Shown in pieces: positions 1,249 through 11,025 of a stretch of DNA of 24,941 bases (positions are counted from its first letter, which is position 1; the number at the start of each line of letters is the position of its first letter). Origin of the DNA: a virus (taxonomy: Duplodnaviria; Caudoviricetes); IMG/VR virus record IMGVR_UViG_3300048606_000042, positions 1-24,941 of that record. The stretch is one strand, 5' to 3'. Below the pieces are notes generated by a model. The model searched no databases, had not been told where the DNA came from, and saw only the letters and a list, made by a program, of their open reading frames with translations. A program made the position numbers and the translations under genes.

Positions 1249-1446
1249 ATGAAGACCCAGGTTGTTCTCCCGTTCTCCCGCGAGACCAAGGGCACGGTGG
1301 TCTACGCCGTGTCCAACCTCAAGTCCGTGGCCGTGGGCCAGGTGTACGTGAACAAGGAGCACCTGGAGAAGGTCGGCGGCGCGTGGCCCGAGCGGATCAC
1401 GCTCACGATCGAGCCGGGCGACACGACGGAGGACGAGACCGCATGA
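1249..1446 (+). CDS. hypothetical protein (65 aa)
   Basis: ATG 1249 follows GAGGG; MKTQVVLPFSRETKGTVVY...; the stop overlaps the next ATG (ATGA). Confidence 0.7.
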   Translation: MKTQVVLPFSRETKGTVVYAVSNLKSVAVGQVYVNKEHLEKVGGAWPERITLTIEPGDTTEDETA

Positions 1447-2558
1447 CGACCACCACCGAGGCGGGCCAGGTCGAGACGTACCTGGCCCGCTCCGGCGGGC
1501 GCCTCGGGTGCCCGCACCCGGTCCACCGGTTCGCCAGTCCTCGCAAGACACCGAGTCGTCTCATCCTCCCCGAGTGCGCCGGGCGCTCCGCCTGGCTGGC
1601 CGCTCGGCGCGAGGGGATCGGCGGCTCCGAGGTCGGCGCGCTCATCGGGGTGAACGAGCACGAGACCGCCATGTCGATCTGGAACAAGAAGCGCCGGACC
1701 GAGCCGGACGTGGAGCTGACCGGCGCGCCGATCGAGTGGGGCCACCGGCTGGAGGACGTGGTGGCGATGAAGACCGCCGAGGAGATCGGCATGGTGTCCC
1801 GGTTCGGCGGCGGGCTCTGGGCCGACCTGGAGCGGCCGTTCATCCGGGTGACCCCGGACCGGTTCGCGTGCAAGCCCAGGAGCTGGAAGGCCGAGGCGGT
1901 CATCGAGTGCAAGACCGCCGGATCGGACGAGCACTGGGAGTCCGGCACCATCCATCCCAAGGGCCACGGGACCGGCTCAGCGCCGCTCAGCTACCAGGCC
2001 CAGCTCCAGTGGCAACTTGGCATTCTCGGGCTCCCCGTGGGCTACCTGGGCTGTTTCGTGCTGGGCTCCGAGCGCCAGTTCTTCACGGTCGAGGTCCACT
2101 TCGATGCGGAGTGGTTCCGCGAGATGACCGACGAGGCCGAGCGGTTCTGGGTGACCAACATCCTGGGGGAGGAGATCCCGCTCCACGACTACCGCCACCC
2201 GATCACCGAGGACCTGATCAAGGAGCTTCACCCGGCCGTGGTTCAGCCATCGACTCAGCTCCCCGACCTGGCCGAGGAGTGGCTGGAGGACTACCAGCGC
2301 GCCAAGCTGGCGGCCGAGGCGGCGGAGACCGAGTTCACGGCGGTCAAGAACTTGTTCCGCGAGTGGACCGGCGACGCCGGGGCGGGCTACCTGGGCGAGG
2401 ACAAGCTGGTCAGCTACCCCGAGGTACGCTCCTCGCGCATCGACGTGGAAGCGCTCAAGCGGGACTATCCCGAGGTGGCCGAGGCCGTCACGGTTCACTC
2501 CCGGTACCGCCGGATGACCATCCGGGTGCCCAAGAAATACAAGCTCGCTGACAGTTAA
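1443..2558 (+). CDS. YqaJ-like viral recombinase / lambda-type exonuclease
   Basis: WLAARREGIGGSEVGALIG, WGHRLED, TPDR, IECKT and YQAQLQWQLGI are the YqaJ/lambda-exonuclease motifs; GGAGG RBS. Confidence 0.9.
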   Translation: MTTTTEAGQVETYLARSGGRLGCPHPVHRFASPRKTPSRLILPECAGRSAWLAARREGIGGSEVGALIGVNEHETAMSIWNKKRRTEPDVELTGAPIEWGHRLEDVVAMKTAEEIGMVSRFGGGLWADLERPFIRVTPDRFACKPRSWKAEAVIECKTAGSDEHWESGTIHPKGHGTGSAPLSYQAQLQWQLGILGLPVGYLGCFVLGSERQFFTVEVHFDAEWFREMTDEAERFWVTNILGEEIPLHDYRHPITEDLIKELHPAVVQPSTQLPDLAEEWLEDYQRAKLAAEAAETEFTAVKNLFREWTGDAGAGYLGEDKLVSYPEVRSSRIDVEALKRDYPEVAEAVTVHSRYRRMTIRVPKKYKLADS

Positions 2559-2564
2559 GTGTCA
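2549..2564 (-). promoter_or_regulatory. operator-like motif copy (TGACACTTAACTGTCA on - strand)
   Basis: Member of the repeated 16-bp TGAC-N8-GTCA family; overlaps the exonuclease stop codon and abuts a promoter. Confidence 0.75.
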
Positions 2565-2567
2565 ACG

Positions 2568-2596
2568 TTGCGACATTGACGGCAAGGCTGTAACGT
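2568..2596 (+). promoter_or_regulatory. sigma70-type promoter
   Basis: TTGCGA-17 bp-TAACGT, with the GGCTG-TAA(C/G)GT element shared by the promoters at 5997, 11063 and 16261. Confidence 0.65.
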
Positions 2597-2601
2597 ACTT
2601 C

Positions 2602-2924
2602 TTGGCCGGTGATCAGGACCCCCGATCACTGACCAACTCGGGCCGGTTTCGCGGTCGGTCCGGGCGCTCCGGATAGGCAGTTGTCAGCCCCTGATGCATC
2701 AGCGGGCCACCGTGGTTCGAGTCCACGGCAGAGCGCGACCGAGACGAGTTTGGGGTGAGCGGCAGGTCCGTTGTTACGCGGGCGAACCCTGTAGACCGGA
2801 GTTACGGATCTCCGGTGACGACGCCCAGAGGGCGTGACGGATCGGATAGACGATCAGGGGCGGCGGCCCACCAGAATCCGCCGGGCTCGGCCGGACACCC
2901 AGAGGCACCACGTCCGGCCGGGTC
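2602..2924 (+). ncRNA. putative structured RNA / long structured leader containing a tRNA-like domain
   Basis: Consecutive hairpins at 2602-2636 and 2637-2664, a tRNA-like fold at 2664-2737, a multibranch domain at ~2749-2875 and a hairpin at ~2884-2924. Many G-U pairs work only on the + strand, and no convincing ORF is present. Confidence 0.6.
2664..2737 (+). tRNA. tRNA-like element / pseudo-tRNA without a canonical anticodon loop
   Basis: GCGCTC/GAGCGC acceptor-like stem, TA-GGC-AGTTGTCA-GCC D-arm and CCGTGG-TTCGAGT-CCACGG T-arm. The anticodon arm is CTGA-TGCA-TCAG with a 4-nt loop, and no CCA is encoded. Confidence 0.5.
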
Positions 2925-2984
2925 GCACCAACAAACCACTCAGTACAGCGCACAGCGCACAGACAGCAGGAAGAGAGGGCCATC

Positions 2985-3461
2985 ATGGCTCGTTCCACCA
3001 GCAACACCCCGGCCGCCGCTCCGGCCGCCACGGCCGCTGACTTCGATGATGCCGAGGACCTGTTCGGCGGCACCGGGGTTGCGGTTGAGGGCGGGGACTT
3101 CGAGGACGCGGACGACCTCCTGAACACCGTCCAGGAGGACGACGCGGAAGGCTGGGTGCCGACCGAGAAGGGCGAGAGCCTGGCCGGTGTCGTGGTCAAG
3201 GTCGGGGAGACCCGGTCCGACTTCGCCAAGCCGGGCGAGGACCCGATGGTCCCGACCGTCACGGTCCTGACCCGCGAGGGCGACAAGTACCGGGTGATCG
3301 GGTTCGGCTCGGTGCTCAAGCGCGAGATCGAGGACGCCAACGTCCAGGTGGGCGGGCTGTTCGCGGTCAAGTATTGGGGCGAGAAGCCGATCAAGAAGGG
3401 TCCGTTTGCGGGCAAGAACTACAAGCACTACTCGGTGGCCTTCAAGCCCAAGAAGGGCTGA
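2985..3461 (+). CDS. putative OB-fold ssDNA-binding protein with acidic N-terminal tail
   Basis: Acidic N-terminus (DFDDAEDLF...DFEDADDLL), then a beta-rich core W.P..GESLAGVVV...VQVG..FAVKYWG...YKHYSV. Lies in the recombination module; GAGAGGG RBS. Confidence 0.6.
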   Translation: MARSTSNTPAAAPAATAADFDDAEDLFGGTGVAVEGGDFEDADDLLNTVQEDDAEGWVPTEKGESLAGVVVKVGETRSDFAKPGEDPMVPTVTVLTREGDKYRVIGFGSVLKREIEDANVQVGGLFAVKYWGEKPIKKGPFAGKNYKHYSVAFKPKKG

Positions 3462-3536: not shown

Positions 3537-3875
3537 ATGACCGAGCAGACGTTCAGCCTGGGCAAGCTCCCGGTCCCGAACGGGACCATCCTGATCATGG
3601 GCATTCAGTACGAGAACCAGACCACGGACAAGGTCTGGACGTACGCCCTCCTCAAGGCTGGCGGGCTCTGGTACGTCACGGGCAACGGCCAGGTCCCGAC
3701 GGCGGCCGGGTGGGCGGCCGTGGAGCGCTGGCTGGCCAAGAGCAACCGGCGCGTGGTCTCGGTCCGGGCCGTGACCGAGACCGTCCCGCTCTACCCCTCC
3801 CCGGGTGCGCCCGAGGCGGCGCCGATCGTGGCCGCGCTGGCCGCTCGGGTTGACACTTCCCAGGCGGCCGAGTAA
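3537..3875 (+). CDS. hypothetical protein (GGxWYxTG domain; paralog of 797..1246)
   Basis: AGGAAGG RBS; NGTILIM...TYALLKAGGLWYVTG...W...RWL. Confidence 0.75.
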   Translation: MTEQTFSLGKLPVPNGTILIMGIQYENQTTDKVWTYALLKAGGLWYVTGNGQVPTAAGWAAVERWLAKSNRRVVSVRAVTETVPLYPSPGAPEAAPIVAALAARVDTSQAAE

Positions 3876-3885: not shown

Positions 3886-4278
3886 ATGACGACAACGATT
3901 GAGCCACACGACTGGGACGGGTGCCTGATGTGCGCCGTCCGAGCGCTGACCGAGGGTCGGCCGCGCGACTGGGCGACCCGTAAGGACATGGCCGAGGGCG
4001 ACACGGTCACCGGTGTGGTCCTGCGGATGGGCACCCAGCCGACTCACTACACGGACGCTCAGGCGCCGTACGTGGACCTCTGGCTGGGCGGGGTGGAGCG
4101 CGTCCGGGTGGCCGGTCACGGCCAGGTGTTGCGCGAGGCTCTGATCTCCGCCGAGATCCAGGTGGGCGACACGGTCACGGTGACGTTCGAGGGAACCAAG
4201 GAGTTCACGCCCAAGACCGGGCGCGGCCCGCTGTCCTACAAGTTGTTCACGGTGAGCGTGGAGCGGGGGCATCACTGA
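3886..4278 (+). CDS. second putative OB-fold protein (paralog of 2985..3461)
   Basis: GDTVTGVVL...RVAGHGQVLREAL..AEIQVGDTVTVTFEG...YKLFTV aligns by eye with 2985..3461; N-terminal H...CxxC. Confidence 0.65.
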   Translation: MTTTIEPHDWDGCLMCAVRALTEGRPRDWATRKDMAEGDTVTGVVLRMGTQPTHYTDAQAPYVDLWLGGVERVRVAGHGQVLREALISAEIQVGDTVTVTFEGTKEFTPKTGRGPLSYKLFTVSVERGHH

Positions 4279-6816: not shown

Positions 6817-9800
6817 GTGAGCAATCCGAGCGCCACCGAGATTCACCTCAGCGACGAGCACCGGGCGTATCTGGCCAGTCAGGCCGTGGACCCCGATCTG
6901 GCCCTCAAGCTGGGAGTCCACACCGTCACCGAACGTGCCGACATGGAAGCCACGGGGAGTGACAACTGGGTCAACTTCGCCAACTTCCCGGCCATCCTCT
7001 TCCCCTGGACCAGCCCGGACGGCCGGATCATGTACCAGGCCCGGCCGGACACTCCGACCCTGGACCAGCGCACCCAGCGGCCCCGCAAGTACGTGTTCGG
7101 CCGTGGGGAGGAGCCGGTCCTCTGGGCCGTCCGTGAGGTCGAGGGCTCCGAGCGGATCGTGATCGTGGAGGGGACCAAGCAATGCCTGGCCGCCGCCTCG
7201 TACGCGCCGCCCGGAGTCTCGGTCTACGGCATCGCCGGTTGCCGCATGTGGCAAGTCGACGGAGTGCCGATCGGGGACCTGGCCGTGGCGGACGGTAAGG
7301 AGGTCGTGGTCATCCTGGACGCGGACGCGGCCGAGAACCCCGACGTGTACCAGGCCGGGATCGAGCTGGCCGAGGCGCTGGCGATGGAGACCGCCACCAA
7401 GGTCACGTTCGGTCGCCTCCCCGGCGGCGGCAAGAACGGCCTGGACGACATCCTGGCCAGCCGACTGGAGGAGCGGCGCGCGGTCTACCTGGCCGCCCTG
7501 ATCGACAAGGCCAAGCCCAAGCCAGCCGACAAGGCGCCGACCCGCAAGAAGCGCATCGGCGCGGCGCCGACCGGCACCAAGGACCGGCCCACGATCGTGG
7601 TCAATCGGGACCGCTGGGAAGTGATCAACGACCTGGCGGACGCGCTGCTCAAGCGCTGGAACGCCACCGAGCTGTTCAACCACGGGGGCGTGATCTCGCG
7701 GCGCGTGGGCGACTCGATGAGCCCGGTTGACCGGGGCACCTTCCACGACATCGTCCAGGCCACGGCCGTGACGGTGACCGAGAACGAGGGCGCCCAGGGC
7801 ACCACGTACGGCTACGCCTGGCCGGACGCCGGGAGCATGTCCGCCGTGATGAGCCGGGCCGACCGGTTCGCCACGCTGGAGCGGCTGGCTCACGCGCCGT
7901 TCGTGCGGCCGGACGGCTCGATCGTCACCGAGCCCGGGTACGACGAGGCAACGCGAACCATCCTCATGCCTGACGAGGTGTTCGCCGGGATCGAGGTGCC
8001 GGAGAGCCCGAGCGCGGACGAGATCCAGGCGGCCCGGGACCTGATCCTGACCGAGTGGCTGGGGGACTTCCCGCTGGACGGGGAGGCCGACCTGGCCAAC
8101 CTCCTGGCCCTGGTGGTCACCCCGGCCATCCGGGGCATGGTGCCGCGCGCACCAATGGCCGTGGTGGACGGGCTCCAGATGGGCGTGGGTAAGAACCTGC
8201 TGGCGGACTGCCTGCTCACGGTCTACACGGGCCACGCGGCCCAGCCGATGAACTGGGTCGAGGAGGCCGAGGAGCTGCGGAAGCAGATCACCTCGGCGTT
8301 CCGTACCGGCGCCGAGTTCTTCGTGTTCGATGAGGCCCACACGCTGGAGGGCGCCGCGCTGGCCCAGGCCCTGACCGCCGAGACCTGGCAAGACCGCATC
8401 CTGGGCGTCTCGACCATGGCCAACTTCCCGAACCGGGTCACCTGGTTGAGCCTGGGGAACAACGTCCAGGTCAAGGGCGACATCACGCGCCGGGTCTACC
8501 GGATCGCACTCCGGCCCCGGTACGCCAACCCCCAGGACCGCCAGGCGAGCACGTTCCGGCACCCGGGCACGTCCGGGCTCGACCTCGGGAGCTGGACCCG
8601 CAAGCACCGGCGGGAGCTGATGGTGGCCATCCTGACCCTGGTCCGGGCGTGGTTCGCCCAGGGCTCGCCGTACCCGACCCGGGGCGTCTCGTTCGGCTCG
8701 TTCGAGGCGTGGGAGAAGACCGTCGGCGGGATCGTGGAGGCGGCCGGGTTGCCGGGCTTCCTGGGCAACCTCACCGTGTGGCGCTCCGAGAGCGACTTCG
8801 ATTCCCAGTATTGGATCAGCCACCTGGAATGGCTCAAGGAGCAGTTCGGGGACCGGACGTTCCGGACCGCCGACGTGAAGACCAAAGCCCTGACCCTGGG
8901 GACCGACCTCTACGCGGCGCCGCCCCGGCTGGACGACCCGAGCGAGAAGACCTACGGCAAGGCCCTGGGCGAGGCATACGGGCGCATCCGGTCCCGGCGC
9001 TATGGCGGGTACTGGCTGGAGCGCGTGGGCTCGGCTCACGGCCACGTGAGCGTCTACCAGGTGTTCGCCGGTGACGATCTCCCCCCGGCGCCGCCGGTCG
9101 CCATCCCGGACCCGGAGCCTGACCCGGCGCTAGAGCCCGAGATCCCGGCCACGACGGCTAAGCGTGGCGGCATCCAGTGGGCCGAGCCTGACAGTCAAGT
9201 GTCAACCAGCCAGGTGGCAGACAGCGAGGTGGCCGACGTGGTCACGTTCGACCTGGAGACCCACGACGCTGAGCAGCTTCACCGGCACGGCCCGGGTTAC
9301 GTGCGGATCGGCGCGACGGCGGCCGACTCGGAGGAGGTCGTCACCTACAACGGGCCGGGCTCGACCGTGCCGCGCCAGGTGGCGGCCGACATCCGGACCG
9401 GCCAGGTGATCACCGGCCACAACATCATGGCGTTCGATCTCCCGGCCCTGGTCAACGACGGTGCTATGACCATGACCGAGGTCCACGACATGGCCGACGA
9501 GGGGCGGCTGGCGGACGCGCTGCTCATGGCCCGCTACATCGATCCCCCGATGGCCAAGGAGAAGGGGGTGGACCACGAGCGCAAGTACGACCTGGGAACC
9601 CTGGGCGCCAAGCTCGGCCTGGGCGAGAAGCTGACCGAGGTCTCCCATCCGCTGGCCAAGAAGTACGGCGGATGGGGCCTGATCCCGATCGACGTGGACG
9701 ACCCGGACGAGGAGCGGGCGCGCGACGCGGCCGACTTCATCGGCTACATGGCCCAGGACGTGAACCTTTCTCGCAAGCTCTACCGGGTGCTCCTGGCCGA

Positions 9801-11025
9801 GCTGGGCGGGACCATGCCGGACTACCTGGTCCGTGAGCACCGGGTGGCCGCCATCGGCGCCCAGATCGGTGTCAACGGGTTCTTGGTGGATCAGACGCTC
9901 CTCGGGGAGCGAGTGCGCGAGGTCGAGGACACCAAGCGCAAGGCCATGGCCTACCTCCACGGCCAGCACGGTGTCCCGCTGGCCGACGCCAAGGGCACGG
10001 CGTACAAGAGCCCGCTGGCCACCAAGCTGGGCAAGGAGGCCGTGGGCGCGGCGCTGGTGGAGCTGGGCGTCCCGGCGCGCTCGCTCTGGCGGACGCCCAA
10101 AGCCCAGGACCTCCAGCTCAGCTCGGACGCGATGATCTTCTACGGCCGGGAGTACGGCCAGAACCGGCCCGAGCTACGCAAGCTCTGCACGGCGGTCTAC
10201 CGGATCGTGTCCGCGCGCTCGGTCTACCAGACCGCGCTCGACCACACCGGCCCGGACGGCCGGGTCCACCCCAAGGTCTCGTTCGAGCAAGCCACCGGCC
10301 GCTGGTCCGTGACTCGCCCTGGCCTGACCGTGTTCGGCAAGCGCAACGGGCGGCACGTGGAGCGCGCGGTCTTCCTCCCCGATCCGGGCGAGGTGCTGAT
10401 CTCGGCCGACCTCTCCCAGGTCGACATGCGGGCCGTGGCCGCGCTCAGCCAGGACCCGGCGTACATGAAGATGCTGGAGTCCGAGGACCCGCACGCCGAG
10501 ATTGCCCGGCTCCTGTTCGGTGACCCCGGGATGCGCGAGGTGGCTAAGCCGATCGGCCACGGTTGGAACTACGGCCGGGGGATCAAGGCCATCAGCGAGG
10601 CCAACAACCTGGACCCGGCCATCGTCCGGAAATTTGACGAGTCGATGTATCAGCGCTTCCCCCGGCTCGTTCAGTGGCAAGGGGAGGTGCGAGCGCTGGC
10701 CGAGTCCGGCGCCCTGCTGGACAACGGCTGGGGCCGGATGATGCGGGCCGACCCGCACCGGGCGCACACCCAGGGTCCGGCGCTGATGGGCCAGGGCGCG
10801 GCCCGGGACATCATGATGGCCGGTCTCCTCCGGCTGGACCGGCGCATCCTGCCGATGCTCCGGGCTCAGGTCCACGATGAGATCGTGCTCTCGGTCCCGG
10901 TGGCCGAGGCCGACGAGATCGGCAAGGCCGTGGTGGACGCCCTCTCGTTCGAGTGGCGCGGCGTGGCCATCACGGCTGACGTGTCCAAGACCGGGACCGA
11001 CTGGAGCAAGTGCTACGAGAAGTGA
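6817..11025 (+). CDS. polA: fused primase (TOPRIM)-helicase/ATPase-3'5' exonuclease-family A DNA polymerase
   Basis: TOPRIM IVEGTKQ...ILDADA...GLDD; P-loop GVGKNLL with FVFDEAH; Pro-rich linker; ExoI FDLET, ExoII GHNIMAFD, ExoIII YMAQDV; PolA QATGRWS, DLSQVDMR, REVAKPIGHGWNYG, QGAARDIM, QVHDEIV. Confidence 0.9.
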   Translation: MSNPSATEIHLSDEHRAYLASQAVDPDLALKLGVHTVTERADMEATGSDNWVNFANFPAILFPWTSPDGRIMYQARPDTPTLDQRTQRPRKYVFGRGEEPVLWAVREVEGSERIVIVEGTKQCLAAASYAPPGVSVYGIAGCRMWQVDGVPIGDLAVADGKEVVVILDADAAENPDVYQAGIELAEALAMETATKVTFGRLPGGGKNGLDDILASRLEERRAVYLAALIDKAKPKPADKAPTRKKRIGAAPTGTKDRPTIVVNRDRWEVINDLADALLKRWNATELFNHGGVISRRVGDSMSPVDRGTFHDIVQATAVTVTENEGAQGTTYGYAWPDAGSMSAVMSRADRFATLERLAHAPFVRPDGSIVTEPGYDEATRTILMPDEVFAGIEVPESPSADEIQAARDLILTEWLGDFPLDGEADLANLLALVVTPAIRGMVPRAPMAVVDGLQMGVGKNLLADCLLTVYTGHAAQPMNWVEEAEELRKQITSAFRTGAEFFVFDEAHTLEGAALAQALTAETWQDRILGVSTMANFPNRVTWLSLGNNVQVKGDITRRVYRIALRPRYANPQDRQASTFRHPGTSGLDLGSWTRKHRRELMVAILTLVRAWFAQGSPYPTRGVSFGSFEAWEKTVGGIVEAAGLPGFLGNLTVWRSESDFDSQYWISHLEWLKEQFGDRTFRTADVKTKALTLGTDLYAAPPRLDDPSEKTYGKALGEAYGRIRSRRYGGYWLERVGSAHGHVSVYQVFAGDDLPPAPPVAIPDPEPDPALEPEIPATTAKRGGIQWAEPDSQVSTSQVADSEVADVVTFDLETHDAEQLHRHGPGYVRIGATAADSEEVVTYNGPGSTVPRQVAADIRTGQVITGHNIMAFDLPALVNDGAMTMTEVHDMADEGRLADALLMARYIDPPMAKEKGVDHERKYDLGTLGAKLGLGEKLTEVSHPLAKKYGGWGLIPIDVDDPDEERARDAADFIGYMAQDVNLSRKLYRVLLAELGGTMPDYLVREHRVAAIGAQIGVNGFLVDQTLLGERVREVEDTKRKAMAYLHGQHGVPLADAKGTAYKSPLATKLGKEAVGAALVELGVPARSLWRTPKAQDLQLSSDAMIFYGREYGQNRPELRKLCTAVYRIVSARSVYQTALDHTGPDGRVHPKVSFEQATGRWSVTRPGLTVFGKRNGRHVERAVFLPDPGEVLISADLSQVDMRAVAALSQDPAYMKMLESEDPHAEIARLLFGDPGMREVAKPIGHGWNYGRGIKAISEANNLDPAIVRKFDESMYQRFPRLVQWQGEVRALAESGALLDNGWGRMMRADPHRAHTQGPALMGQGAARDIMMAGLLRLDRRILPMLRAQVHDEIVLSVPVAEADEIGKAVVDALSFEWRGVAITADVSKTGTDWSKCYEK
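9189..9204 (-). promoter_or_regulatory. intragenic operator-like motif copy (TGACACTTGACTGTCA)
   Basis: The 19 bp CTGACAGTCAAGTGTCAAC at 9188-9206 is identical to 22861-22879. Confidence 0.7.

Follow-up and report, generated by a model that had tools for sequence, protein, structure and literature searches.

A modular cassette of tRNA-like units and exchangeable pseudoknots before a likely single-strand DNA-binding protein gene of phiAsp2-like actinophages

Mitochondrial transcripts are punctuated by tRNAs, and the early mRNA of phage T7 carries RNase III sites, at which a host nuclease cuts the phage polycistron and leaves a stabilising structure. The tRNA-like units described here, from an intergenic cassette in a 24.9-kb piece of a phiAsp2-like actinophage genome (24,941 nt, hereafter the window), are comparable with the former; compared with the latter, the mark is tRNA-shaped and the predicted nuclease is RNase P. 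Described tRNA-like marks cut by RNase P, including MALAT1-mascRNA and the 5' ends of tmRNA and 4.5S RNA, share with the cassette an acceptor and T-arm stack that lies in a longer transcript and does not decode (PMC4919913, available text). The cassette differs from these in that it is phage-borne and modular, ends in RCG rather than CCA, has a swappable pseudoknot directly 3', and recurs in its unit before genes of the Gordonia phage VanLee; if the cassette does work as an RNase P mark, its end in RCG, its loss of the anticodon and its exchangeable pseudoknot cargo set it apart from the known ones.

Several other systems share single features with the cassette. In theta ribozymes, as in the cassette, a pseudoknot begins right at the 3' end of a phage tRNA, whereas the cassette lacks the HDV double pseudoknot and its tRNA partner cannot decode (PMC10879173, available text). 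The tRNA-like domain of tmRNA (RF00023) resembles the class of unit found in the window in its T-arm, its long central stem and a D region that shows no covarying stem; in the window class, however, the central stem is a short hairpin, and identity with tmRNA was rejected in view of the missing RF00023 match, tag reading frame, G3-U70 and CCA end. A tmRNA-pseudoknot origin of the modules was rejected as well, only T-arm words being common with two Streptomyces tmRNAs. GOLLD and ROOL are, like the cassette, phage-encoded, pseudoknot-rich and tRNA-associated, with palindromic loops, whereas the cassette has no Rfam match, is much smaller and modular, and has its own sequence motifs. In the T4 gene 32 operator a pseudoknot and an unstructured stretch precede an SSB gene; the cassette has both before its likely SSB gene, parted by a hairpin, but is far more structured upstream and is A/C-rich, not A/U-rich. 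The literature searched for the phiAsp2-type cassette (few subscription papers) contains no description of it, and four supplementary files of a survey of viral structured RNAs (PMC10690425) contain no match to four contig identifiers or to the motif; single modules may be listed in the remaining supplements.

The window encodes RuvC, a YqaJ/RecE exonuclease, a helicase, a primase-polymerase, a terminase, an endolysin and a portal protein (Pfam and PHROG matches), and its sequence is confirmed by contigs from four sequencing runs (X1). The product of positions 6817-11025 is a 1402-aa fusion of a primase, a central helicase-like region and a family A polymerase (compare phiAsp2 Pas55). Actinoplanes phage phiAsp2 is the only cultured relative found by search, and its unannotated pas49-pas50 gap has a 75% match to the 5' half of the cassette. 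Syntenic loci were gathered by searches with both flanking proteins, the exonuclease and Pas50, and after removal of duplicates 40 regions were counted, the window included; left out were two truncated regions (L019, L031) and two in which the limits of the gap were not delimited (L074, L120). No relatives of either flanking protein were found in the bacterial chromosomes (genome_contigs), where the D-region pattern of the unit occurs at 70 loci, all lacking a downstream T-arm, and the T-arm pattern at 19 loci, all of them real tRNAs or chance matches.

The homologous exonuclease-to-Pas50 gaps measure about 100 to 930 nt, and their comparison reveals mosaics of recurring blocks (Table 1). The promoter, hairpins H1 (GACCCC loop) and H2 (TTCGCGG loop) and an optional longer 5' domain come first, followed by one to three tRNA-like units, each with a pseudoknot module directly 3', and then by short hairpins with GAC-R linkers, the CCAGAAT stem, the long terminal hairpin with GCACCAAC, the A/C-rich stretch and the ribosome-binding site.

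Table 1. Features of the cassette and its flanking genes in the window, and of the VanLee units.
Feature	Position	Strand	Basis or remark
YqaJ/RecE-like exonuclease gene, upstream neighbour	1443..2558	+	PF09588 E 3.7e-21; phrog_434; phiAsp2 pas49 71%
Operator-like inverted repeat TGAC-N4-AAGTGTCA	2549..2564	.	11 matches at 9 window sites vs 0.05 expected
Likely promoter: -35 TTGCGA (2568-73), 17-bp spacer, -10 TAACGT (2591-96)	2568..2596	+	By eye; conserved in relatives
Hairpin H1, loop GGACCCCC	2604..2634	+	23/24 motif matches in hairpins, 22 regions
Hairpin H2, loop TTTCGCGG	2639..2662	+	33/34 motif matches in hairpins, 25 regions
tRNA-like unit	2666..2736	+	Covariation, 18 sequences; single copy in window
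Unit: acceptor, 6 bp	2666-71/2729-34	+	
Unit: D region, 15 nt, no covarying D-stem	2672-86	+	
Unit: central arm with self-complementary tip	2687-2707	+	
Unit: 6-bp T-stem and TTCGAGT loop	2710-28	+	
Unit: 3' end, G73 C74 then G75; no CCA, no anticodon loop	to 2736	+	
Pseudoknot module A	2737..2792	+	Covariation, 11 sequences
Module A: P1	2737-40/2765-68	+	GACC/GGTC pairing
Module A: loop pairing with CCCTGT	2750-56/2786-92	+	Covariation
Module A: invariant ACGCG	2776-80	+	11 sequences
Three short hairpins with GAC-R linkers; loops TTACGGAT, CCAGAGG type, GGATAGAC type	2795..2854	+	Folding; motif recurrence
GGGG and 6-bp stem, loop CCCACCAGAAT, possible compact pseudoknot	2857..2883	+	Covariation, 14 sequences
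13-bp terminal hairpin, then GCACCAAC	2884..2932	+	25/40 regions; resembles GCACCCAAC motif before VanLee genes
Weakly folding A/C-rich stretch with ribosome-binding site	2933..2984	+	A+C 0.60-0.79 in 35/40 regions
Pas50-family gene, likely OB-fold single-strand DNA-binding protein	2985..3461	+	Predicted model; phi29-SSB-like features
VanLee minimal units	NC_073474.1, about 72100-81500 (L305 / L616)	minus	Unannotated

The initial annotation, made from the window alone, had placed an operator-flanked promoter before the cassette. Its inverted repeat is real and its -10 and -35 elements are conserved in relatives, whereas a consensus promoter scanner returned none, the TAACGT/TTGCGA candidate scoring below its bar; transcription would start near 2604. 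Copies of the repeat lie at 2549, 4799, 9189, 11710, 14902, 16262, 18443, 20647 and 22862 of the window, some of them within genes. The two 5' hairpins also proposed there recur across the relatives: the GACCCC-loop motif lies in a hairpin of at least 6 bp in 23 of its 24 matches, and the TTCGCGG loop forms a hairpin in 33 of 34. Fourteen regions (L002, L005, L007, L009, L011, L012, L013, L015, L016, L056, L062, L070, L071 and L090) have a longer 5' domain before the first unit, with no counterpart in the window, which comprises a three-way junction and a second TTCGC-loop hairpin and ends in CCGGCGCTA; both H2 and this second TTCGC-loop copy bear CGCG, and could kiss. The GTGACAGCCCGGAGAGACGGGC hairpin of the cassettes, for which no Rfam match was seen there, has further copies outside coding sequence in Rhodobacter and Ralstonia phages (L302:2501-2527, L303:2400-2524), and the GACAGCCCGGAGAGACGG hairpin is found in phages of Ralstonia and Rhodobacter in which no tRNA-like unit is evident.

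The tRNA-like units occur in 36 of the 40 regions, in six of them as arrays of two or three, while four regions (L050, L051, L054, L075) keep the same gene without any unit. Covariation bears out the tRNA-like domain of the initial annotation: among 18 sequences of the window class, 98.3% of cells are paired, with 28 two-sided changes across acceptor, T-stem and central stem, a level reached by none of 500 shuffles. Because these 18 sequences were picked by their D-region motif, its invariance is circular; the shuffle controls used for covariation throughout ignore relatedness, and slid controls fall to 20-55% paired. A GGC/GCC D-stem in the window's unit was ruled out because the bases on its 3' side show covariation with the central stem. 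The units retain from tRNA a T-loop-capped 12-bp acceptor/T-arm stack and N73-C74, and some have a canonical D-arm; the window class combines a 6+6 bp stack with an unusual D region. In all units the anticodon position is a free hairpin, and this central arm varies in length and sequence, its loop being 4 nt long in the window. ARAGORN and Rfam detect no tRNA in the window, where a cloverleaf of four arms with a 7-nt anticodon loop is absent, and ARAGORN makes calls inside the cassette in three of 18 relative loci.

The 3' end of the unit sets it apart from host tRNA genes. After the 12-bp stack, R73 follows in 41, C74 in 40, G75 in 36 and CCA in one of 44 T-arm matches, a count that includes one false positive and three matches shifted by a single base. 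Among 36 tRNA genes that were read at 30 loci, out of 62 matches, in a Streptomyces genome, C74 is found in all, CCA in 10 and G75 in three. In S. coelicolor, 53 of 65 tRNA genes lack an encoded CCA, and RNase J is present (PMC4681348, available text). Since C74 is universal and G75 rare in the host genes, the unit copies the end of a host pre-tRNA as far as C74 and then departs from it.

Directly 3' of the unit, the initial annotation had drawn a four-way junction, which the covariation contradicts. In module A, the GGTC that was to close the junction pairs instead with GACC at the start of the module, and CCCTGT pairs with the upstream loop (Table 1); across 11 sequences 96.5% of cells are paired, with 11 two-sided cells, and none of 500 shuffles does as well. 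Only 67.5% of cells preserve the competing TACGCGGG/CCCTGTA hairpin, a level that 26 of 500 shuffles reach, and the junction was therefore rejected. The outer GGTGAGC/GCCCACC pairing is likewise unconfirmed, as it needs bases taken up by covarying helices. The module A pattern has 119 viral matches, of which six are genuine, all within the clade of the window. Other phages use at the same position module B, which is also a pseudoknot (99.4% paired) and covaries as a separate unit. The pseudoknot behind each unit belongs to one of several swappable types, and at least six unrelated module types were distinguished; in the contigs from the four runs, other modules stand behind the same tRNA-like unit, so that modules are swapped even among close relatives.

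Further downstream, the CCAGAGG-type and GGATAGAC-type hairpins have 26 matches across the 40 regions. The CCAGAAT element is present in 14 regions, where its stem is 100% paired with 23 two-sided changes, and the extra GGG/CCC pairing considered for it shows no two-sided change in the same 14 sequences. The final 13-bp hairpin recurs as a terminal hairpin followed by ACCR in 25 of the 40 regions. All of the complementary stretches first named are indeed present in the sequence at the positions given, and the structure read on the plus strand is supported at the RNA level by covariation in unit, pseudoknot and CCAGAAT stem and by more stable folding of the plus than of the minus strand in 30 of 37 regions. 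The folding energy of the whole region, with a z-score of -1.83 and six of 100 shuffles as stable, is barely above chance (minus strand, -1.15). By comparison among relatives, the cassette is best described as a string of independent, exchangeable modules, not a single 320-nt multi-domain fold. The proposal of an undescribed non-coding RNA or processed leader on the plus strand thus holds up, though not as one fold: neither the window nor its relatives match a family at gathering or E-value thresholds, with GOLLD, ROOL, OLE, YrlA, C4 and all other Rfam 15 families below gathering, and no reading frame is conserved across the 40 regions. A 122-codon open reading frame at 2755-3123 was rejected, since only 10 of 40 regions keep its frame open over at least 76 codons, and translated matches fall in various frames.

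The gene behind the cassette, Pas50, has no Pfam or PHROG family and no PDB sequence match, no annotated PHROG among 50 distant relatives, and no profile match to the genes behind two distant cassettes. Its predicted model (mean pLDDT 76) has the order strand-strand-strand-helix-strand-strand, with phi29-SSB-like feature matches of 0.84-0.85 that serve as a lead only; from this strand order and the weak phi29 SSB likeness, Pas50 is likely an OB-fold single-strand DNA-binding protein. A distant paralogue (about 30% identity) lies two genes downstream, at 3886-4278, with its own promoter-like site near 3850. A joint action of the RNA with the neighbouring exonuclease, which had also been suggested, finds no support, as nothing links the two functionally and VanLee has the unit before many unrelated small genes.

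Weak repeated matches to the unit model, at 17-26 bits (a real tRNA scores 18 bits with the same model), were found in Gordonia phage VanLee. Here a minimal unit, consisting of acceptor, small loop or hairpin, and T-arm, occupies 15 of the 17 gaps of at least 70 nt in a series of small genes read leftward. Each of the 16 minus-strand copies has RCG (ACG or GCG) at its end, and 12 of them are followed by a GCACCCAAC-like motif and then a start codon; their 3' flanks hold plain hairpins or nothing. VanLee and the window cassette have the same GCACC(C)AAC leader motif, and VanLee, as read from sequence, appears to repeat the window grammar on a small scale (unit, RCG, structured module, GCACC(C)AAC, gene), a link by shape and RCG signature and not proven descent. 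The gene-by-gene layout argues for a cis processing mark, and judging by it the VanLee unit can hardly be other than a cis mark on mRNA. Minimal units also occur in four related Gordonia phages (Cafasso, Aleemily, ObLaDi and Morgana). Close to the VanLee units are a tRNA-Arg and a gene annotated as encoding a Ro-like RNA-binding protein.

Two distant phages carry units of the window class, with the accompanying blocks, behind an exonuclease of another family (phrog_466), the cassette lying between it and a gene with an acidic N-terminus. An inserted region in the exonuclease gene of one distant phage (L610:1948-3075) matches intein-like parts of terminase profiles. In G007, one of the two phages with phrog_466, a second array of tRNA-like units (L613:1470-2030) has a near-consensus promoter to itself, and no gene is evident between it and the promoter that follows; it lies after a tail-completion-type gene and ahead of a run of repeated promoters. 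Another distant viral contig (L395) carries H1, H2 and repeated unit-plus-module blocks, one unit having a TTCGCGG hairpin in the anticodon position.

We propose that the core of the cassette is an anticodon-less, tRNA-shaped cutting mark for host RNase P that caps the downstream RNA and its pseudoknot cargo, and we find the balance for and against this reading about even. RNase P measures the T-arm/acceptor stack, can do without the D-loop and has many substrates that are not tRNAs (PMC4919913, available text); its RNA pairs with C74, and precursors lacking CCA are still cut (PMC1874595, available text). The T-loop-capped acceptor/T-arm stack and free 5' leader typical of its non-tRNA substrates are both found in the units. 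Host RNase P would cut at the 5' side of the unit, at about 2666, and free an H1-H2 RNA. Normal 3' trimming and CCA addition would be impeded by G75 and by the pseudoknot, which begins at position 75, and with 3' maturation so hindered the unit would remain attached as a 5' cap that resists nucleases (actinomycetes have RNase J). The capped RNA would carry the pseudoknot cargo and the message from Pas50 (likely SSB) to the helicase, with stability and output raised. Consistent with such a mark, the stack, the canonical T-loop and R73-C74-G75 are conserved while the anticodon position is freely replaced, C74 without CCA follows the host tRNA-gene pattern, and the spread of VanLee units over 15 of 17 gaps with 16 of 16 RCG ends points the same way. 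Against it, arrays of two or three units with elaborate modules, and the stand-alone array of G007, exceed the needs of an mRNA cap, and four of 40 relatives keep the Pas50 gene without a unit. The homology of window and VanLee units also rests on shape and the RCG end, at low model scores, and the window class, with its 6+6 bp stack, has an unusual D region whose elbow contact is putative. Tentatively, and with less confidence than doubt, we consider a combined reading, in which a general RCG tRNA-mimic grammar would punctuate actinobacterial phage transcripts by way of host RNase P, and the array of the phiAsp2 group would in addition release swappable pseudoknot RNAs as anti-defence effectors or self-assembling scaffolds.

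Alternatively, the cassette may be a polycistronic non-coding precursor that host tRNA-processing enzymes cleave on either side of every unit; the tRNA mimics and pseudoknot RNAs so freed would be trans-acting decoys for tRNA-targeting toxins, for abortive-infection nucleases or for other defence proteins that bind RNA. Several unrelated, exchangeable pseudoknot families with one to three units per phage, their swaps among close relatives, the optional presence of units (absent from four of 40 regions), the stand-alone array in G007, the separate covariation of module B and the host-type C74 ends would all suit decoys. Yet the enrichment of G75 (36/44, and 16/16 in VanLee, against 3/36 host tRNA genes) is contrary to plain tRNA-like maturation, the VanLee units are gene-by-gene cis marks, and no target was identified. 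Most tRNA nucleases, moreover, attack the anticodon arm, which is the least conserved part of the unit, and we regard this explanation as unlikely.

Pas50 itself might instead bind the cassette, nucleating on a pseudoknot and covering the A/C-rich stretch and ribosome-binding site, as in the autoregulation of T4 gene 32. The gp32 precedent (PMC3014915, available text), the OB-like model, the pseudoknots and unstructured stretch before the ribosome-binding site, and the location of the two distant cassettes, also between exonuclease and acidic-N-terminal gene, fit this idea. It leaves the tRNA-like units, H1/H2 and VanLee unexplained, however, and Pas50 proteins are 50-80% identical between phages whose pseudoknots differ; a long hairpin parts pseudoknot from unstructured stretch, and the CCAGAAT element is in 14 of 40 regions only. 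We judge autoregulation to be distinctly unlikely as the main role, although it may coexist with the RNase P mechanism.

Self-assembly of the RNA into dimers or larger forms, through self-complementary tips of the central-arm loops as in OLE, GOLLD and ROOL, is improbable in our estimate. Four-base palindromes occur in nine of 22 distinct central-arm loops (5.3 expected, P 0.036) and, with the closing pair, in 13 of 23 (7.8 expected, P 0.012), with switches between different palindromes of the kind that underpin kissing bridges in OLE and GOLLD (bioRxiv 2024.12.08.627333, available text); this test was nevertheless post hoc, with a modest effect among related sequences. A similar enrichment is seen for other cassette loops by one test of the two (46 vs 32, P 0.002), and palindromes are missing from many canonical-D-arm units and from the VanLee units.

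It is still harder to credit a new class of self-cleaving ribozyme that frees each unit from behind, as theta ribozymes do phage tRNAs. The module does sit immediately 3' of the acceptor as a small pseudoknot with many invariant bases, but a loose descriptor of the theta/HDV-like nested double pseudoknot (P1, P2, P3-L3, J4/2 cytosine) fits only four of 42 units, that of the window not among them; at least six unrelated module types would all need to be ribozymes, and VanLee units have plain hairpins or nothing there. A DNA-level site (an origin or a recombination substrate for the flanking proteins) or decayed, functionless tRNA genes can be dismissed almost entirely: the location between recombination and replication genes and the weak energy z-score would suit them, but they are opposed by G-U-tolerant covariation, pseudoknots, T-loop conservation, strand bias and stems that are compensated though the anticodon is lost.

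The locus thus holds several new RNA motif families backed by covariation, together with a portable signal. As this signal is present in cultured phages with hosts (phiAsp2, and VanLee with its four relatives), it is directly testable. Should the modules act in trans, they would parallel, at the RNA level, the variable cassettes of anti-defence genes that phages carry. If punctuation by RNase P proves true, it would constitute a new route of phage mRNA processing, and the unit would offer a small tool to cut and stabilise actinomycete transcripts.
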